Part shown: positions 3,370 through 39,519 of the stretch, one piece after another
How positions within the stretch are numbered: position 1 is the stretch's first letter
How the letters are laid out: each line of letters begins with the position of its first letter
DNA from: Candidatus Wolfebacteria bacterium
GTDB lineage: Bacteria; Patescibacteriota; Minisyncoccia; UBA6257; UBA9933
DNA: 64,000 nt
Assembly: GCA_016188075.1 (NCBI GenBank)
Contig: JACPIO010000017.1
Coordinates: 23,406 to 87,405 of the forward strand
Reading direction: 5' to 3'
Translations under genes and position numbers: made by a program
The notes under the pieces: model-generated
Databases searched by the model: none
Told to the model about the DNA's origin: nothing
Seen by the model: only the letters and a program-made list of their open reading frames with translations

Positions 3370-5070
3370 TTATTTAAACACCCTTTTCGTCTTCATATAC
3401 CACTTCTCTATAGCAGAGAATCGGTCCGAGGGCAAGGCAATAAAATTTTCTTCAAAACCTTGAAGTCCGCCGCGAATTACATAAAGGTAATTCGGCGAAA
3501 AAAGAAAGATGGCCGGAGCCTCGCCGGAAATAAGCGAGTTTAAACTGGCTAAATCTTTTCTCCGAGCCGTCTCGTCTTCGTCAGTCCGGATCGATTCCAA
3601 GAGCGCGTCGGCCAGCCGGCTTTCGTAAAGAGACAAATTCAGCCCGGGATAAAATCTTTCCGAAGAATGCCAAAAGGAAAAAGGATCGGGATTTTCGCCA
3701 AAAGTGTTTCCAAAAAGAATCATTTCATAGTCGCGAGCTTTGAGCACGCTGTTCGTAATTTCCTCGTGAGACTTCACCGAGACGTTAAGCTTCACGCCGA
3801 TTTTTAACCAGTCGGAAGCAATAAGATTCGCCGCCTCAACCAAAAAGGAATTGTCCGGCACAATTAGATTAAATTCCATTTTGGCAGTTTCTCCGGAACC
3901 GGCAATCAGCCGACCGCCCTTGTCAAGGAGCGGCCCGATTCTTTTTTCCATTATTCCCCCTTCACCCGGGCGCCAGCCGTTTTCCGTGAAAAGAGACAAC
4001 GCTTTGTCCGGCAAAATAAGAGCGGGCTCGCCGTAAGGCGCGGCCTTGTATCCCTCCATTCCGGGAAGAAGCGGCCCCTCTACTCGGAGGGCGTGATTCC
4101 CGAAAACTTTCTCAATAATTTTTTTGCGGTCAACGGCAAGCCCCAAGGCAATTCTTATATTTTTTTCTTGGAGAGCCGGAGCGGAGGCTAAATTAAAGAA
4201 AATGGCGTTGTAGCGGGGCATTCTCAAATCGTACGTCTGCTTCGCGACCGTGATTTTTTCCAAATCCGGCGCGTCGAGATTGCCCGCGCCGTCAACTATC
4301 CCCCTGTTTACCGCTTCAATCAATTCGTCCTTGCTGGGATAGAATTTGAAAATCAGATTATTCAAATACGGCCGCTCCCCTAAATAATTTTCGTTCCTTG
4401 TAAGCTGATATTGACTGATGAATCCGTCTCTTTTTTTCTCGATCGAAAGAAATTTAAACGGTCCGCTCGCGACCGGTTCCAGGTTAAAACTGGAAAGCCG
4501 GATATTGGCCGGCGGCAAAACCCCGAAGATATGCTTGGGAATCGGTCTCAAATCTTTCAAATTGTTTTTAAAGAAGGCGTAAGGAGAAGCTAATTTTAAT
4601 TTGAATTCCAATTCGCTTACTCGCTCGGTCTCCACCCCCTGCCAAGCGAGAAACAAGGGAGAACGAGTATCGGGATCCTGAATCAGATTGATCGTAAAAA
4701 TAACGTCATCGCTCGTAATCTCCACTCCATCATCCCAACGGGCATCGGGCTTAAGCCGGAGATTCCAAGATTTACCCTTGTCGTTCACCTTATAACTCTC
4801 CGCCAAATCCAAAACGTCGCTGAATAAAATTTCCGTCAAATCCCTATCCGGATCGTTCTCGCCCACCAAGACCGGATTCACAAAACTTAATTGCCCGACT
4901 ACGCCTTCGCGGTATTCGCCGCCCAAAGCCGGAATTTCTTTTGTTTTCTCGCCGATAAAATTCGCGCCAATAAAAATTCCGCTTACCGCGAAAACCAAAA
5001 GGCTGGAAGCAAAAATCAACCTCTCAAGGCGCGAAAAAATTTTCCAGATTTTAAGGATTCCCGAAAACAA
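3370..5070 (-). CDS. ABC transporter substrate-binding protein, family 5 (oligopeptide/dipeptide type)
   Basis: 566 aa; N-terminal signal/TM, SBP_bac_5-like body (…DVIFTINLIQDPDTRSPLFLAWQGVE…). Confidence 0.75.
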   Translation of the reverse strand: MFSGILKIWKIFSRLERLIFASSLLVFAVSGIFIGANFIGEKTKEIPALGGEYREGVVGQLSFVNPVLVGENDPDRDLTEILFSDVLDLAESYKVNDKGKSWNLRLKPDARWDDGVEITSDDVIFTINLIQDPDTRSPLFLAWQGVETERVSELEFKLKLASPYAFFKNNLKDLRPIPKHIFGVLPPANIRLSSFNLEPVASGPFKFLSIEKKRDGFISQYQLTRNENYLGERPYLNNLIFKFYPSKDELIEAVNRGIVDGAGNLDAPDLEKITVAKQTYDLRMPRYNAIFFNLASAPALQEKNIRIALGLAVDRKKIIEKVFGNHALRVEGPLLPGMEGYKAAPYGEPALILPDKALSLFTENGWRPGEGGIMEKRIGPLLDKGGRLIAGSGETAKMEFNLIVPDNSFLVEAANLIASDWLKIGVKLNVSVKSHEEITNSVLKARDYEMILFGNTFGENPDPFSFWHSSERFYPGLNLSLYESRLADALLESIRTDEDETARRKDLASLNSLISGEAPAIFLFSPNYLYVIRGGLQGFEENFIALPSDRFSAIEKWYMKTKRVFK

Positions 5071-6898: not shown

Positions 6899-7531
6899 AT
6901 GACTATTACCTGGTACGGCGAAGGCAGTTTTAAAATTCAGACCGGAGAAACCTCGCTTCTCACGGATCCGTTTGACCCTATAACAGGGCTTACTCCTCCC
7001 CGGTTTAAGCCTCAAATTATTCTCAAAACCCTGAATGCTATCGCTGATCTTTCGGCGAAGGACGCCAAAAATCGAGATGGGCTTTCCATAAACGGCGCGG
7101 GCGAATACAATCTAAGGGGCATAAATATCTTGGGCATTCCGCTCACAGAAGAATCAACCGGCAAATTTTTAAAAACCATCTATATTCTGGAAGCCGAGGA
7201 TATCCGGCTTTGTCTTCTCGGGCACCTGTCCGAAGCGCCGGAAACGGCCACTCTTCAGAAAATCGGGGAGATTGACATTCTTTTTATTCCGGCCGGCGGC
7301 AAACCGTTTCTCGATCAAAAATCAAGTTTTAAGCTCGTGAAGCAGATTGAACCCAAAATAGTCATTCCATCATTTTTTAAACTGCCGGGCCTGAAACGTC
7401 CGGCGGCCGACGTCCAAACCTTCCTCGATGAAGTGAATCACAAAAAAATAGATTCCCAAGAAAAATTATCCATAAAAAGCAAAGAGTTAAGAGAAAGCAA
7501 ATCAATGCAAATCGCGGTTTTAAAAATTTAA
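6899..7531 (+). CDS. MBL-fold metal-dependent hydrolase (UPF0173-like)
   Basis: 210 aa; LTDPFDP... and CLLGHLSE fit the beta-lactamase superfamily pattern. Confidence 0.5.
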   Translation: MTITWYGEGSFKIQTGETSLLTDPFDPITGLTPPRFKPQIILKTLNAIADLSAKDAKNRDGLSINGAGEYNLRGINILGIPLTEESTGKFLKTIYILEAEDIRLCLLGHLSEAPETATLQKIGEIDILFIPAGGKPFLDQKSSFKLVKQIEPKIVIPSFFKLPGLKRPAADVQTFLDEVNHKKIDSQEKLSIKSKELRESKSMQIAVLKI

Positions 7532-7660
7532 TCCAAGCGCCAGCAATTCCTCGCCGCTTGCGGCGAGGATGAATGGCGCGACTAGAAATCTCGGCGGAGC
7601 CGACCCTTATTGGATCGAACCCGCCCTGATGCCGCGCCGCTTGCGGCGCGGACGGGTTCA
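7529..7660 (+). repeat. ~135-nt structured repeat element, copy 2 (short-loop variant)
   Basis: See copy 1. Terminal hairpin is GCCGCGCCGC-ttg-CGGCGCGGAC here versus GCCGCGTTCCGAC-ttg-TCGGAACGCGGAC in copy 1, a compensatory change. Confidence 0.8.
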
Positions 7661-7662
7661 CA

Positions 7663-14719: not shown

Positions 14720-15811
14720 TTACGGCCTCCTTCCGAGAAGAGCAGTGAGCGCAGCACTCACCACCCCTCGACTCTCGGACGAAATGGTCACTTTTTTCTC
14801 ATCGATCGTCTTCTTTACCTTATCGCGCTCGGTCTGGACGATTTCGAGCGCTTGTTCCGGCGTAAAGTTAAGGGGGGCGGCCATGAGCTCTCGAATCCTC
14901 TCGCGCACATGTTCGAGCTCAATCCGTTCAGCCTCCCTCTGCCGCTCTTCTCGTCGAGCCTTCTCGTAATCCTCCTGTACTTCTGGAGGTCGAGAGAGCT
15001 CACCAACGAGCACTTCGATAACATCAATACCCCATTCGATGGCTCGTTGGTCAGCCCGGCGTTGGATACCGTCGAGTATGAGATCCCTTGCAGCCACCGC
15101 GTCGTCATCGTTTAAAGTCCTGACGGTGGAACGCAGATTCTGTTGGACGAGCTCGACCAAACTTCTGTCGATTACCTCCTCGCCAACAGAGAGTACCTGC
15201 CCGGGGTTTTCAACCCGCCAGCGGATTGCCGACGGCTCCACGGTGATCCGAACGTTATTCGACGAAATCACGGTGAATTTATCGGCCCGAGAACTCCTTT
15301 CGCGTGCATCTACCGCCTCGGCAGCCATAATGGGCCGAGGCAATATCCAACTCCACCCCTCGGAAAGTTCGTAACGGGCGCGAACCAACCCCACTTCTTC
15401 CGGAGTTCCGTCGGGCAACGGACGTATTGCGGTAAACCGTTGCAGCAGACGTCCTCCAAAAATAGTCGGCACACCCCGGTGAGCAATGGGAATCGAGATT
15501 AATCCGGCCACTCCGAAGTAGCCGAAAACGACGAAAGCTACCCCTATATTGTAAGGCCAAGAGATAAGGGTGTATGCGACACCCGTTAATACTCCGACGA
15601 GGAGAATTCCGAGAAGAAACGACCGAACTCGGCTGAGTCTTCGGGGTTCTTCGTCACCGCCCCAAGGCGAGATCGAAGGGGCACTAGGAGGAGTAGGCGG
15701 GGTAGTTATAGCCGTTGTCGGTCGGCGCCCACGGCGCCCAAGAAGGTACCCCAACAAGGCCACGAGAAGCCCTACTACACCGACACCTATCCATGTCCAC
15801 ATCGCATCCAT
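14720..15811 (-). CDS. SPFH/band-7 (stomatin/prohibitin/HflK-C-like) domain protein
   Basis: 363 aa; two N-terminal TM helices, SPFH core and a long Glu/Arg coiled coil (EDYEKARREERQREAERIELEHVRERIREL). Markedly higher GC than the surroundings. Confidence 0.7.
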   Translation of the reverse strand: MDAMWTWIGVGVVGLLVALLGYLLGRRGRRPTTAITTPPTPPSAPSISPWGGDEEPRRLSRVRSFLLGILLVGVLTGVAYTLISWPYNIGVAFVVFGYFGVAGLISIPIAHRGVPTIFGGRLLQRFTAIRPLPDGTPEEVGLVRARYELSEGWSWILPRPIMAAEAVDARERSSRADKFTVISSNNVRITVEPSAIRWRVENPGQVLSVGEEVIDRSLVELVQQNLRSTVRTLNDDDAVAARDLILDGIQRRADQRAIEWGIDVIEVLVGELSRPPEVQEDYEKARREERQREAERIELEHVRERIRELMAAPLNFTPEQALEIVQTERDKVKKTIDEKKVTISSESRGVVSAALTALLGRRP

Positions 15812-16024
15812 CGTCCTTCTCCTTCCGACCCGTGTCGCTCTGGACGACTGGGTCTCATGCGGGTTATTAGGTTATCTTGCTCTCGCGTCCACTAAAGTGA
15901 ACGCGCACTAAGTCAAAGTACAACATCCCGAGTGTCAACTCGGAACTGCCTTAATATAAGCACAAATCGCTAAAAAAGTCAACATCTTGTTTTATTTTAC
16001 TTATTCCCCTTTTTCCCGTTTCTT

Positions 16025-16156
16025 TAATCCAAACGCCAGCAATTCCTCGCCGCTTGTATCGAGGATGAATGGCGCAACTAAGAATCTCGGCGGAGCCGAC
16101 CCTTATTGGATCGAACCCGCCCTGATGCCGCGCCGCTTGCGGCGCGGACGGGTTCA
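16025..16156 (+). repeat. ~135-nt structured repeat element, copy 3
   Basis: First hairpin variant CCTCGCCGCTTGTATCGAGG, short-loop terminal hairpin. An inverted fragment of the same element (catcctcgccgcaagcggcgagg) lies at 16564-16586. Confidence 0.8.
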
Positions 16157-16201
16157 CTCCTCCGCCAATCTTACATTAACCTTGTATTCCCCCAACTCGC
16201 T

Positions 16202-17658
16202 GCTACGTTTAAACGTAGCAGTGAGAACGTAGCAACGAGGGAGGAACGCCGACAGACGAAAAACCCAGGGGAGCAAAAACCATTAAAACTCTTTTCCTTA
16301 GGAGCCGGCTTGATGATAAATCAAACAATTCTGTCCGCTACGTTTAAACGTAGCGGCGAGGCATACATCAAAAATACAGAGAATGACCGACCGAAAGAAA
16401 TCAATCAGTTCCTCCCGTTCGTTCTCCTGCTCGAAATTAATACTCCGTAGTTAACGTTTCGCAAAATTTTAGAGTTGCGCTCGCGTCATTATCTTTCACG
16501 ACATTATCTTTTAAAACTGCCTGCTACGTTTAAACGTAGCAGGCAGGATAACCATAAAACATCCTCGCCGCAAGCGGCGAGGTATTCGGCGATTAGCGCC
16601 ATAAACAAACTTTTGAAAAGATATTCCAATCTAAAAAGATATTCCGGGCGAAAACTAAAGTTGATCAAGAAAATCCCAGCGACCCCTTCCCTTGTAGGCC
16701 GGAATTTTTCTTCTTTTGTACCGCGGTTCGCGGAATCTTAACGGAATATTTTTTAATTTCTTATCCGGGTTGATTTTTTCCCTCCTTTTTAATCCCCTTT
16801 TCACAAAACTAATGGTGTCGGGACTTACGTCAACAATTTCACCTATTTTCCGGTAAGTTAAACCGCGTTCCAAAAGCAAGAGAGTCGCCAATCTTCTTTC
16901 AAGAAGATTAATTTCGCTTCCCGAAAGAAATTTATTTAAACCGCAGAGCAAGTCTTTTTCGGAGGTTGCTCCCCTTATCTCCGTCAAGAACTTTTGCCAT
17001 GCCGCCCTCTTCAAAATCTCCCCTATGTATTTTTTATTAACATTGACCATCTTTTTATTCTTTTAACCATTACTCCGGCTCCATTCACCATTCTAACAGT
17101 CTTTTGCTAATCCTTAAATTATAAAACAAGTAATTATATATTGCTATGTTTAAACATAGCAGGTTAACTGAAAAAGAAGGGTAGAAGGGCTCCGGATTCT
17201 ATTATCTCTATATCAGCATGAGTGACGTCAGTATATCAATATAAACGATATCAGCAGAGATCATTTCGGCGCAGGACGATTCTCTTCGATCTGCTACGTT
17301 TAAACGTAGCAGACAGAGTAAGGATAATCGCAGCTTAGCCAAAAAAACCAGTCCAAATTGCAAAACTATTATTTTCTCTCCACTACGTTTAAACGTAGCG
17401 CGCAGGGTAGGAATAGACAGAAGATGGTCGAGTAACTGGCGCGAATAAACAGCGGCTCCGAATACACGACAGCCGAGAAAGCAAGAGGGGCAAATATTTT
17501 CAGAAAGCAATACTGCGAAAAATACCGCAATGCTACGTTTAAACATAGCAGCGAGACGTAAATCAACTACCTCGCGGTTAGCACTCGCAAAATTTTGAAT
17601 TTATGCTCGTAACGCTATCGTCTAACTTCTAAAATTGCACGCTACGTTTAAACGTAGC
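16202..17658. repeat. array of eight 18-bp perfect palindromes GCTACGTTTAAACGTAGC (irregular spacing)
   Basis: Cores at 16202, 16336, 16523, 17143, 17293, 17382, 17532 and 17641. Flanks extend the palindrome differently in each copy (a perfect 30-mer at 16517-16546). The copy at 17143 carries a compensatory C>T/G>A pair. Confidence 0.85.
16655..17050 (-). CDS. TrpR-like (YerC/YecD family) helix-turn-helix protein
   Basis: 131 aa; ...LTYRKIGEIVDVSPDTISFVKRGLKR matches the Trp-repressor/YerC HTH; basic C-terminal tail. Sits inside the palindrome array. Confidence 0.6.
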   Translation of the reverse strand: MVNVNKKYIGEILKRAAWQKFLTEIRGATSEKDLLCGLNKFLSGSEINLLERRLATLLLLERGLTYRKIGEIVDVSPDTISFVKRGLKRREKINPDKKLKNIPLRFREPRYKRRKIPAYKGRGRWDFLDQL

Positions 17659-17779: not shown

Positions 17780-17865
17780 GGGCGAGTGGCGGAACTGGAA
17801 TACGCGTACGCCTTAGAAGCGTATGGACTATGTCCTTGAGGGTTCGAATCCCTCCCCGCCCACCA
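17780..17865 (+). tRNA. tRNA-Leu (UAG), CCA encoded
   Basis: Type II cloverleaf: GGGCGAG/..CCCGCCC acceptor (one A-C mismatch), anticodon loop CTTAGAA, long variable arm, T-arm GAGGGTTCGAATCCCTC, then ACCA. A start at 17777 is an alternative parse. Confidence 0.75.
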
Positions 17866-17876
17866 CAGAATTATCA

Positions 17877-18161
17877 ATGTATTATGTTTACATTTTACAA
17901 AGCTTGAAAGATAATCGCACTTATGTTGGTTATACTCAAAATATCACCAACAGGTTGCATCAACACAATAATGGCGAGGTAAGGGCTACTGCAAACAGGC
18001 AACCATTCAAGTTGTTGTATCTAGAGGAGTGTCAAAACTTAATCGAAGCTAAAAGTAGGGAAAATTATTGGAAATCTGGTGGCGGCAGAAGAAAGCTTAA
18101 AAAATATTTTTTGGATGGGTTCCCGCCCCGATTATCATCGGGGCGAGGCTCGCCCAAATAG
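17877..18161 (+). CDS. GIY-YIG nuclease superfamily protein (YhbQ/UPF0213-like)
   Basis: MYYVYILQSLKDNRTYVGYTQNITNRLHQHNNG...: YVY...YVGYT...RL.QH is the GIY-YIG core. Lies immediately 3' of the tRNA-Leu gene. Confidence 0.65.
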   Translation: MYYVYILQSLKDNRTYVGYTQNITNRLHQHNNGEVRATANRQPFKLLYLEECQNLIEAKSRENYWKSGGGRRKLKKYFLDGFPPRLSSGRGSPK

Positions 18162-37975: not shown

Positions 37976-38317
37976 TCACGCCATTCGACGGACGCACATG
38001 ATGTTTAACTCATCCGACCAGTATCCCAAGATGAATGAGGCGTCACCGCGAGTGATGGTAACCTCCGTCGTCTCGCCTGCACGAATCTTCCCTTTCGCCT
38101 CGGCGATCTCGCTCCGAATTGCCACCTCGTCGCGTGCTTCGACGCCACCTGCTTCGAGTGACGCCGACAAGAGCAAGTGGACCAATTTCTCCAGCCGCTC
38201 TCTGACGAGTGGTGCAGGGAATTCGTCAATCCCACTCAACTTCCGCATCAAGCTACCACCGCATTCACTCACGACCGGCCTCCTTTCGGATTCTTGGCTA
38301 CAATCAATAGCCATAGG
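37976..38317 (-). CDS. hypothetical protein in a GC-rich islet
   Basis: About 113 aa from the internal Met (MAIDCSQESERRP...); the ORF-track N-terminal extension to 38485 is AT-rich and probably spurious. Local GC is clearly above the window average. Confidence 0.35.
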   Translation of the reverse strand, partial: PMAIDCSQESERRPVVSECGGSLMRKLSGIDEFPAPLVRERLEKLVHLLLSASLEAGGVEARDEVAIRSEIAEAKGKIRAGETTEVTITRGDASFILGYWSDELNIMCVRRMA

Positions 38318-38524
38318 AAAGAACTGCTTCTGGCACCATTGCCATTGCGGAAATCCTAACACGAACTTTCTATTTTTGTAAAGAAAAGTGGGAGAGATGA
38401 TAAAGGCGTAGATAATAAAAAATGAAAGAAAAAGAACAAGGAGAAAGAATAAGGAGGGGGTATGTCTGTATAGCGCACTATACACCTAAATTTGAGGTAA
38501 GATAATGACCGATATCAGAAATCT

Positions 38525-38663
38525 TTAATCCAAGCGCCAGCAATTCCTCGCCGCTTGTATCGAGAATGAATGGCGCAACTAGAAATCTCGGCGGAGCCGA
38601 CCCTTATTGGATCGAACCCGCCCTGATGCCGCGTTCCGACTTGTCGGAACGCGGACGGGTTCA
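38525..38663 (+). repeat. ~135-nt structured repeat element, copy 4 (long-loop variant)
   Basis: First hairpin is the copy-3 type (ttgtatcgag), terminal hairpin is the copy-1 type (ttccgacttgtcggaac); mosaic of the variants. Confidence 0.8.
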
Positions 38664-38990
38664 CTCTCTGAAATCTCTAAAAAATATCTAAAGCAGAAAT
38701 ATCACCCCGCCCCGCATCTCGCTGTATAGGACACTATACAGATAAAATCACCGCGAAAACTCGTCTCGTAAACCCCGTTAGAACGGGCGCTTCGCGGCCG
38801 GCTGATGGGAGCATTATACTCCCCATCAGCTATTTTATCTCTACCGCCGACAGAGTCGGCGGCGTTCTAACGGGGTAAATCTCTAAAATAAAAAATCTGT
38901 CGGTTCGCTATTCACTCTATTCCGCTGTATAGCACACTATACAGCTCAAATTGAGACGGGAAGTCATAAGCAAATCGCTTCATAAACGAA

Positions 38991-39386
38991 TTACCAATGG
39001 GGTCTGCGTCGTTCTTTTCTGATAAATCTGTATTTTCTAAATTTCAGCTTTAAGGGGTCGCGCCAGCCGGATCGGGCATTATTTTTAGTTTCAGAATATT
39101 TCCGTTTTTTCCAAACCGGTCTTTTGAAGTTGTTTTTAACAAAATTTACAGTTGCCCTTGTTACGTCCGCCCTCCTCGCAATCTCCGAATAGGAGATTTT
39201 TTCCTTCAATAGACTTTTGACCGCCAGTCGTTTTTCCATCAAGACAATTTCCTCATCGGTCAAGCCGCGCCTCAAGGCATTTTTGAGTTCGTTTTCATTC
39301 CTCGACGCCCGAAGGTTTACAAAAAATCCCTCCCAGATTTCTTTTTTAAATTTTTCATCAAAATACTTCCTACTCGTCCTGCTCAT
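38991..39386 (-). CDS. TrpR-like (YerC/YecD family) helix-turn-helix protein, paralog 2
   Basis: 131 aa; ...ISYSEIARRADVTRATVNFVKNNFKR is a Trp-repressor-like HTH; basic C-terminal tail as in 16655..17050. Confidence 0.6.
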   Translation of the reverse strand: MSRTSRKYFDEKFKKEIWEGFFVNLRASRNENELKNALRRGLTDEEIVLMEKRLAVKSLLKEKISYSEIARRADVTRATVNFVKNNFKRPVWKKRKYSETKNNARSGWRDPLKLKFRKYRFIRKERRRPHW

Positions 39387-39519
39387 CTGTATAGTATACT
39401 ATACGGTTAAAAGGAAAACAATGCCCGCAGGTCTTCCGTGGTCATACATTTTTGGCAAATTCCAAATCGCGTGATAAAATAGAAGAGGAATCCCGAGAAT
39501 TATGTTAAAATGAAAACTT

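Follow-up and report, generated by a model that had tools for sequence, protein, structure and literature searches.

The 64,000-nt stretch of DNA analysed here, referred to as the window, comprises positions 23,406-87,405 of the forward strand of contig JACPIO010000017.1 (assembly GCA_016188075.1) from a Candidatus Wolfebacteria bacterium and contains, at 38466-39406, a module in which the gene for a TrpR-fold helix-turn-helix (HTH) protein is accompanied by four copies of a 20-bp palindrome, CTGTATAG-N4-CTATACAG (locus 2; Table 1). A paralogous module, locus 1, combines a second TrpR-like gene with eight copies of a different palindrome, three of them past the stop codon (at 16202, 16337 and 16523) and five upstream of the start (17143, 17293, 17382, 17532 and 17641). 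A preliminary description, made from the letters of the window, had proposed both pairings and had pointed to the locus-2 palindrome next to the start codon as a likely autoregulatory operator; our analysis bears out the pairings and the position of this copy (P4), which begins at 39387, directly adjoining the gene start at 39386.

When we searched with CTGTATAGNNNNCTATACAG, locus 2 yielded two perfect copies and two with one mismatch, compared to zero in 100 shuffles, and the 64 kb held no other copy at up to two mismatches and one chance-level match at three. All four locus-2 and all eight locus-1 copies lie within about 600 bp of their own gene, with none elsewhere in the 64 kb, and these are the only palindrome families repeated in the window: the other repeated palindromes are hairpins within a ~140-nt structured repeat (see below) and a few chance matches in two or three copies, and no third family was found in the 64 kb. 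Palindrome searches covered these 64 kb of the source genome and 3-10 kb of DNA for each related locus. Over this range the palindromes are non-random, restricted to the loci of their genes and conserved in orthologues.

Table 1. Positions of the features of locus 2 and its paralogous locus 1 within the window
Feature	Position	Strand	Remarks
131-aa TrpR-fold HTH protein gene HYV91_02680	38991..39386	-	Pfam, AlphaFold, Foldseek
P4 CTGTATAGTATACTATACGG	39387..39406		Directly adjoins start codon; putative autoregulatory operator
P3 CTGTATAGCACACTATACAG	38925..38944		46 nt past stop codon; counterpart of the putative downstream operator of the family
P2 CTGTATAGGACACTATACAG	38722..38741		Extra site, 250 nt past stop; with P3 flanks the 105-nt element
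P1 CTGTATAGCGCACTATACAC	38466..38485		Extra site, 506 nt past stop; with P2 flanks the 140-nt repeat copy
Promoter-like TATACA-16-GATAAT	38479..38506	+	Overlaps P1; directed into the 140-nt repeat
105-nt element, 14-bp closing stem around two hairpins	38772..38876		Single copy in window
~140-nt structured repeat copy	38522..38666	+	One of four window copies
Paralogous 131-aa TrpR-like gene HYV91_02585	16655..17050	-	Pfam PF01371; six-frame open reading frame search
GCTACGTTTAAACGTAGC, eight copies	16202-17658		Around the locus-1 gene

A TrpR-fold protein outside the characterised subfamilies

The locus-2 protein matches exactly an NCBI record from a Candidatus Wolfebacteria metagenome-assembled genome (MAG) that is annotated only as "hypothetical protein". 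It scored 35.5 bits and the locus-1 protein 34.5 bits with the Pfam Trp_repressor model (PF01371; cut-off 27), and a precomputed PF01371 match is present in 49 of 52 database relatives. In the NCBIfam models for the two characterised subfamilies, by contrast, the two window proteins remained well under the cut-offs, at 15.2 and 16.5 bits for the TrpR equivalog TIGR01321 (cut-off 67.25) and at 20.6 and 20.1 bits for TIGR02531, the YerC/YecD (HisR) model (cut-off 42.2). The locus-2 protein is therefore a member of the Pfam TrpR family that belongs to neither TrpR nor HisR and represents a separate subfamily, so that of the YerC/YecD-like assignment in the preliminary description the TrpR family holds and the YerC/YecD label does not.

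The AlphaFold model of the locus-2 protein, built on 51 relatives (pLDDT, the predicted local distance difference test score, of 82), contains five helices (residues 11-27, 31-39, 44-61, 66-73 and 77-84) and shows the TrpR fold, with helices A-C followed by a D-turn-E HTH at about residues 66-84 and a low-confidence tail from about residue 90. The top 22 Foldseek matches of this model in the PDB are all TrpR or TrpR-like, the best being 3g1c, 3frw, 3kor and the TrpR-operator complexes 1trr/1tro, with a root-mean-square deviation of 1.3-2.1 Å across 71-77 aligned columns for 3frw (1.3-2.5 Å for 3frw and 3g1c) and a target-normalised TM-score of at most 0.71; 3g1c is HisR of E. eligens (PMC9413887). 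The C-terminal tail (residues ~90-131) is basic and has no equivalent in TrpR or HisR. Proteins of the subfamily are mostly 119-131 residues long and the C-terminal extension is conserved: in the family alignment, most members end, after a basic low-confidence linker, in P-x-[YF]-x-G-[RK]-G-R-W-x-F-L, and the clade of the locus-2 protein has F-R-K-Y-R-F in place of the GRGRW-x-FL motif. The peptide may act as a minor-groove arm similar to an AT-hook, or it may serve in oligomerisation or docking.

When 1.8 billion representatives were searched with a profile, 986 clusters reached E <= 1e-10 and 46 reached E <= 1e-30. Two long representatives, P0112 and P0180, proved to be unrelated tandem-HTH proteins. 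Named hosts of the relatives are Wolfebacteria, Jorgensenbacteria, Brennerbacteria, Saccharibacteria and unclassified Patescibacteria, all of which we group here as Candidate Phyla Radiation (CPR) bacteria; our literature search found no paper connecting the Trp repressor family with CPR bacteria. Among the six-frame open reading frames (ORFs) of the window there is no third family gene beyond those of loci 1 and 2. The two window proteins share 35% identity across the N-terminal 89 residues and 28% over their whole length, and the locus-1 protein is closer, at 41-46%, to proteins of other CPR lineages; because of these identities we regard the two paralogs as ancient rather than as products of a recent local duplication.

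Palindromes and recognition helices across the family

DNA fetched for the relatives provided 17 non-redundant family loci, both window loci included, from Wolfe-, Jorgensen- and Brennerbacteria, Saccharibacteria and unnamed CPR bacteria (relatives' loci are numbered with the prefix L); most were obtained through exact-protein look-ups, while peptide-pattern scans of genomes and metagenomes gave only four and two loci. At 16 of the 17 loci the gene is bracketed by at least two copies of its own 18-26-bp palindrome, with the upstream copy 1-92 nt before the start and the downstream copy between -11 and +215 nt relative to the stop codon. The exception is L013, which has one full upstream site and only a half-site downstream. 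No further copies were found in 3-5 kb flanks of the 15 other loci. The orthologues of the locus-2 protein at 60-65% identity (L001/L006 and L005/L010) carry TGTATAG-N4-CTATACA both at the ATG and past the stop, and the palindromes stay although the flanks and the neighbouring genes differ; likewise, L007 and L012 (82% identical) have kept both sites within diverged flanks.

The sequence of the bracketing palindrome varies from locus to locus. L001/L006 have TTGTATAGTATACTATACAG adjoining the ATG and TGTATAGTATACTATACA again 99 nt past the stop, and in L007 and L012 TGGTATAGTATACTATACCA adjoins the ATG and the second copy includes the TAG stop codon. Three copies each are present of GGTGCTACAGTTAACTGTAGCACC in L015, of GCTCTGTTTAAACAGAGC in L018 and of GATATACTTAAGTATATC in L019, and two each of GCGCTCTAACGCGTTAGAGCGC in L021 and of GCTTTGTTTAAACAAAGC in L009 (Saccharibacteria), while L016 and L017 share GCTTCGATTAATCGAAGC. 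As a crude control, we determined whether an exact 12-mer from the 160 nt before a gene recurs in the 260 nt after it, and found this for 10 of 15 automatically called family genes versus 5 of 113 other ORFs of the same DNA. The five failing family genes are mis-called ORFs or have copies that differ by a few bases, and the matches of the other ORFs are mostly A/T-rich words.

We then set the four residues that open the predicted recognition helix against the half-site or full site of each locus (Table 2) and found that the two co-vary: across the 17 loci the palindrome differs when these residues differ and is the same when they are the same, with one exception (L014, see below). The helices of the two window paralogs, TRATVNF versus SPDTISF, are not identical, in line with the paired specificities that the preliminary description had predicted. 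In another pair of paralogs from one genome, L006 and L007 of bin65 (61% identity), an A-to-V change in the helix goes with a T-to-G change in each half-site, and L015, L016 and L018 have three different sites at 47-61% mutual identity. Specificity thus appears to turn over quickly in this family. Of the earlier picture of duplicated and co-diverged regulator-palindrome pairs, the co-divergence is borne out by the comparison of the loci, whereas a recent local duplication does not fit the low identity of the two window proteins.

Table 2. First four residues of the predicted recognition helix and the accompanying site
Helix	Half-site or site
TRAT/TRTT	half-site TGTATAG
TRVT	half-site GGTATAG
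TRRT	half-site GGTATAC
TLKT	half-site GATATAC
SPDT	site GCTACGTTTAAACGTAGC
SSTM	site GCTTTGTTTAAACAAAGC
SSDT	site GCTCTGTTTAAACAGAGC
SPVT	site GCTACAGTTAACTGTAGC
GPAA (two loci)	site GCTTCGATTAATCGAAGC

A candidate autorepressor and competing explanations

The position of the upstream palindrome relative to promoter-like motifs follows two patterns. At the seven TATA-centred loci (window locus 2, L001/L006, L005/L010, L007 and L012) the palindrome centre reads TATACT on the gene strand and is separated from the ATG by exactly 6 nt in every case, the TATACT of P4 at locus 2 being at 39398..39393. In the GC-rich class, a -10-like motif directly follows the palindrome, in an extended form in L017 (TGTGGTATAAT), in a weaker form in L018 (TGTGGTATGCT) and as TGTGGTATTTA in L015 and GTGATATAAT in L016, with TGTGGTAT(AAT/GCT/TTA) directly after the palindrome in L015, L017 and L018; in this class, the operator would therefore be placed over the promoter.

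We consider that the palindromes are probably the cognate operators of the adjacent TrpR-fold protein and that this protein acts as an autorepressor. The protein would be a dimer of a CPR-specific subfamily with CTGTATAG-N4-CTATACAG as its cognate site at locus 2. TATACT would serve as the -10 box from which transcription starts at the A of the ATG, giving a leaderless mRNA, and a dimer on P4 would block RNA polymerase at this promoter, resulting in negative autoregulation; the autoregulatory role suggested earlier for the start-codon copy is supported by the sequence evidence, as orthologues keep a palindrome at the start codon. The copy past the stop codon would cooperate with the start copy, either in a repression loop or as a roadblock that insulates the gene from neighbouring transcription. 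We favour such cooperation with low confidence, because the downstream copy is no plain terminator: its role as an intrinsic terminator was rejected, since most copies come without a T-run and separate canonical terminator hairpins come after the downstream palindrome in L012, L014 and L016. P1 and P2 would extend the bound region across ~520 bp of non-coding DNA that holds two structured elements, and the protein may gate short non-coding transcripts of these enclosed elements. What we infer from these arrangements is the binding of the protein, a leaderless promoter under autorepression, the looping or insulation, and the gating of the enclosed elements, the last two being much less certain than the operators themselves.

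Two-operator repression loops are known from LacI (O1/O2), GalR (OE/OI) and DeoR. The CPR loci resemble these in having at least two identical palindromic operators a few hundred bp apart around a regulated promoter or gene, but differ from them in that the operators bracket the coding sequence of the regulator itself instead of the promoter of a target, that oligomerisation is putative and that the sites show no helical phasing.

Several observations weigh against the operators and the mechanism proposed here. The -35 elements upstream of TATACT are poor or absent. Motifs like the Shine-Dalgarno (SD) sequence are rare in this genome, being present at 6 of 44 ORFs; the missing SD is therefore uninformative and was dropped as an argument that the mRNA is leaderless. 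Any perfect palindrome can also be read as a hairpin, for which the variable N4 would make a suitable loop. Operator spacings of 405-654 bp without helical phasing are neutral on looping, and it is hard to see what a cell would gain from a protein that binds nowhere but around its own gene. L014, with the helix SQET, has the site of L016 and L017 (helix GPAA), and the loci that share a helix are also the closest relatives, so that the co-variation is phylogenetically non-independent.

The trp operator reads TGTACTAGTTAACTAGTACA, and the L015 sequence TGCTACAGTTAACTGTAGCA has the same AGTTAACT centre. PMC9413887 gives only a consensus for the TrpR operator, TGTAcTnGTnnACnAgTACA, and for that of HisR TGTAnTArnnnnyTnTTACA, both 20-bp palindromes; the CPR sites, of the 18-20-bp TGTA...TACA type, have the geometry and in part the sequence of these operators. 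With E. coli TrpR the CPR proteins share the fold, the Pfam family, a ~20-bp TGTA...TACA palindrome and an operator over the own promoter, but they are ~25 residues longer, have the basic C-terminal tail and score far too low on the TrpR model (15 bits, cut-off 67); a second operator past the stop codon is the rule at their loci, no target operon is seen, and each paralog has a specificity of its own that changes fast. None of the family loci examined has trp or aro genes nearby. HisR (YerC of B. subtilis) is likewise a small TrpR-family protein (<100 residues) and includes the closest solved structures (3g1c, 3frw and 3kor), and it has 20-bp palindromic operators, about half of the hisR genes having a site upstream of themselves and thus being autoregulated (PMC9413887). 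Its motif is conserved across Firmicutes, Actinobacteria and Synergistetes, where the sites lie upstream of genes for histidine biosynthesis or transport (PMC9413887), whereas the CPR motif differs between 58-61%-identical proteins and was seen nowhere but around the regulator gene. The family loci have no his genes next to them.

These parallels raise the alternative of an ordinary metabolite-sensing repressor of the TrpR/HisR type with a distal regulon, for instance of transporter, tRNA or aminoacyl-tRNA synthetase (aaRS) genes, of which the local sites would be the autoregulatory part. Both TrpR and HisR respond to amino acids, control more than one operon and in many cases also themselves (PMC9413887), and only ~64 kb of the source genome is in view. 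Furthermore, tRNA genes lie within ~200 bp at window locus 1, L005/L010 and L014, and class II aaRS genes are immediate neighbours in L013, L015, L016, L017 and L022. However, the aaRS neighbours in L015-L017 are convergent, placing the sites outside their promoters, the tRNA promoters do not overlap a site, and no further site for either window protein was detected in the 64 kb, nor in the 3-5 kb flanks of the 15 other loci. Moreover, specificity has changed between the ~60%-identical proteins of L015, L016 and L018, whereas the HisR motif is conserved across phyla, and a multi-operon regulon is hard to reconcile with such fast turnover. We therefore regard a distal regulon as unlikely, though worth keeping in mind.

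Less likely still is a selfish or mobile palindrome-gene-palindrome cassette, akin to the REP-associated tyrosine transposases (RAYTs) and their repetitive extragenic palindromic (REP) sequences or to an immunity or incompatibility determinant, whose private, fast-evolving specificity would avoid cross-talk and whose arrays would arise by local multiplication of the terminal palindromes. RAYTs are HUH/Y1 transposases with cognate REP palindromes dispersed in many copies over the genome. The likeness lies in a small gene that has copies of a short palindrome, its presumed target, on both sides and in paralogs with different palindrome families, as for those of the window and of bin65 (L006, L007). 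The bracketing is tight, with the downstream palindrome overlapping the stop codon in L007, L012 and L014; neighbouring genes differ among orthologues at 62-65% identity, ~95-bp direct repeats ending in the palindrome surround the L016 gene, and the perfect palindromes sit within otherwise unrelated spacers. Against this, the CPR protein has an HTH repressor fold followed by a low-confidence tail and is without catalytic motifs, no transposase, recombinase or HUH/Y1 domain being found with Pfam and NCBIfam; PHROG and PADLOC gave nothing significant, tblastn detected nothing in phages or plasmids, and IMG/VR contained no relative, so that a phage, plasmid or defence origin was rejected. The palindromes are not dispersed within the 64 kb, L007 and L012 have synteny in common, and no empty site was found. 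The one exact palindrome that turned up in a viral contig is not near any TrpR-like gene and was taken as chance.

We consider it very unlikely that the palindromes act without the adjacent protein, as hairpins of RNA or single-stranded DNA such as terminators, processing sites or REP-like elements. Their perfect inverted repeats with a variable 4-nt centre would suit this, as would the downstream copies of L001, L015 and L017, which are 26-44-bp palindromes flanked by A and T runs, and the symmetric double change at 17143 (GCTATG...CATAGC) with a one-sided intermediate at 17532. Yet the palindrome sequence tracks the recognition helix of the neighbouring protein across the 17 loci, there is always a copy at the promoter or start, where termination would serve no purpose, stems in this subfamily are short and rich in A and T, and the symmetric change lies in CpG and is explicable by deamination on both strands; the missing T-runs and the separate terminators argue in the same direction.

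A chromosome-structure device (a centromere-like, nucleoid-anchoring or replication-fork-barrier locus) is highly improbable, since, despite the arrays of four and eight sites in 0.9-1.5 kb of non-coding DNA adjoining the gene and a basic flexible tail that may recall small centromere-binding proteins, a single chromosome has two such loci with unlike specificities at a distance of 22 kb, the number of sites is no more than two or three in most relatives, no partner NTPase gene is adjacent, a GC-skew switch is lacking and perfect palindromes are incapable of polar fork arrest. ParB/parS offers a comparable centromere-like cluster of sites with its binding protein, and in Tus/TerB and RTP/Ter the gene adjoins, and is autoregulated by, a binding site, the Ter sites being asymmetric and spread over the terminus. 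The CPR loci share with Tus/TerB and RTP/Ter the gene for a small site-specific DNA-binding protein beside one of several clustered sites, but their sites are perfect palindromes at two independent loci without a terminus signature. A replication origin or terminus was also rejected, as there is no DnaA-box cluster (13 matches versus 10.3 expected, none in the loci) and no GC-skew switch.

Structured elements, neighbouring genes and implications

The 105-nt element and the 140-nt repeat copy were the only structured parts of the DNA between palindromes. The two-hairpin segment noted in the preliminary description is closed by a perfect inverted repeat of 14 bp rather than 13 (38772-38785/38863-38876), and its fold is far more stable than those of shuffles, with z = -7.7 on the + strand and -8.2 on the - strand. 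BLAST found no second copy of this 105-nt element in the window or in the fetched relative loci, and Rfam gave no match at the gathering threshold (best, RAGATH-4 at 21.6 bits versus a cut-off of 104.4). It may be an RNA gene, an insert resembling a miniature inverted-repeat transposable element (MITE) or a DNA structure.

The ~140-nt repeat, a copy of which had been reported at locus 2, occurs in three further copies, all on the + strand (1868-2007, 7527-7661 and 16021-16159), and the copies are ~92-93% identical to each other. Its consensus fold has 39 pairs, of which 3 are compensatory, with U.G wobbles that are valid on the + strand only and CUUG loops, which likewise suit an RNA from that strand alone. 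Two versions of the third hairpin, CGCGTTCCGAC...GTCGGAACGCG and CGCGCCG...CGGCGCG, differ by changes that are all compensated and form a mosaic among the copies. No Rfam match was found at gathering thresholds and no copy in any fetched relative locus or in IMG/VR; the repeat is probably a + strand RNA or a MITE-like element. The proposed association of this repeat with TrpR-like loci holds as far as adjacency is concerned, whereas the link itself is weak: two of the four copies adjoin such a locus, those at 1868-2007 and 7527-7661 are far from any TrpR-like gene, and the loci of relatives lack the repeat. The adjacency looks incidental, and the copy at locus 2 is probably a neighbour outside the module.

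The preliminary description had also reported an internal tandem duplication of ~210 bp at locus 2, which we did not recover: Tandem Repeats Finder detected nothing of that period. Nothing recurs, at 203-206 nt spacing, but the palindrome, a few bases beside it and the 12-mer AAATCTCTAAAA. The 12-mer lies at 38671-38682, 5 nt past the 140-nt repeat, and at 38877-38888, directly past the 105-nt fold, and could be a common 3' flank or a common insertion target of the two structured elements.

At locus 1, the spacers between the palindromes are mutually unrelated, and we ruled out a series of structured small RNAs by folding seven spacers and the stretch from the last palindrome to the tRNA gene (z = -2.0 to +2.0); Rfam gave no match over locus 1, spacers included. 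The site nearest the gene start (17143-17160) has the symmetric double change mentioned above, the site at 17532-17549 only one of the two changes, and both changes are C-to-T transitions at CpG, which could reflect methyl-C deamination or selection preserving the dyad. The TTTAAA centres of two locus-1 palindromes coincide with the -35 boxes of promoter-like sites directed away from the gene. An inverted fragment of the first hairpin of the 140-nt repeat (CCTCGCCGCTTGCGGCGAGGATG) followed by a T-run lies at 16560-16586 (-), 70 nt past the stop codon, and looks like the intrinsic terminator of the locus-1 gene, with its hairpin (16582..16563) between the stop codon and the first site beyond.

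The right edge of locus 1 is formed by a tRNA-Leu gene (17780-17865), ~120 nt beyond the last palindrome, and by a small gene with a GIY-YIG nuclease domain directly downstream of it (17823-18161, +). The left neighbours of loci 1 and 2 are GC-rich minus-strand genes, 14720-15811 (~54% GC) and 37976-38278 (~57%, compared to 45.5% for the window), one encoding a Band_7/SPFH protein and the other being a 100-aa ORF without a Pfam match. A copy of the 140-nt repeat is near each of them, located between the neighbour and the first palindrome at locus 1 and just after P1 at locus 2.

Translation genes often adjoin the loci of relatives too. A tRNA-Leu gene ~120 nt beyond the last palindrome recurs in L005 (4750-4836) and L010 (3750-3836), a tRNA-Gly gene is upstream in L014 (2832-2903), and the aaRS neighbours have been named above; such adjacency may reflect CPR gene content only, the statistics being marginal. 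In L016, from a Jorgensenbacteria MAG, the direct repeats (~90% identical) are at ~2870-2970 and 3510-3612, and a degenerate third palindrome, GCCTTGATTAATCAAAGC, lies 43 nt past the stop. L018 has ~530 bp of non-coding DNA between two palindromes (2330-2855) with tandem copies of the 13-nt AAACACCGTACCT (~4 copies) and the 15-nt CTTACAACCAATGGG (~3 copies), and a perfect DnaA-box 9-mer, TTATCCACA, adjoins its promoter-proximal palindrome. In L017, an RVT_1 reverse transcriptase gene and, next to it, a bAvd gene (400-1740), the core genes of a diversity-generating retroelement, lie ~1.3 kb upstream of the Brennerbacteria family member.

An autoregulatory operator is in itself an already known motif. 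What appears to be new is the bracketing of the gene by its own palindrome, together with the speed at which helix and site have diverged in step over a large CPR family and with the growth of the sites into non-coding arrays; the start-plus-stop operator layout and these arrays go beyond autoregulation as described in textbooks. Should the sites turn out to be restricted to the locus of the regulator, what the family does would become a real open question. A bolder reading, which we consider doubtful, is that these are a widespread class of self-contained CPR cassettes whose only genomic targets are the private palindromes bracketing their own gene, whose specificity changes fast to avoid paralog cross-talk and which have no role in regulating metabolism. 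Such a cassette would be a selfish element with some mobility, or else a boundary or a silencer formed by the bound protein, which could expand into arrays that enclose and gate non-coding structured RNAs. CPR/Patescibacteria have very few transcription factors, almost none of them with a known site, and the present comparison provides predicted protein-DNA recognition pairs for 17 members of a family of about a thousand 50%-identity clusters. These pairs would form a natural series on the re-specification of the TrpR helix, as in the change of A to V accompanied by that of TGTATAG to GGTATAG between paralogs of one genome, and may provide a set of orthogonal repressor/operator pairs for synthetic biology.

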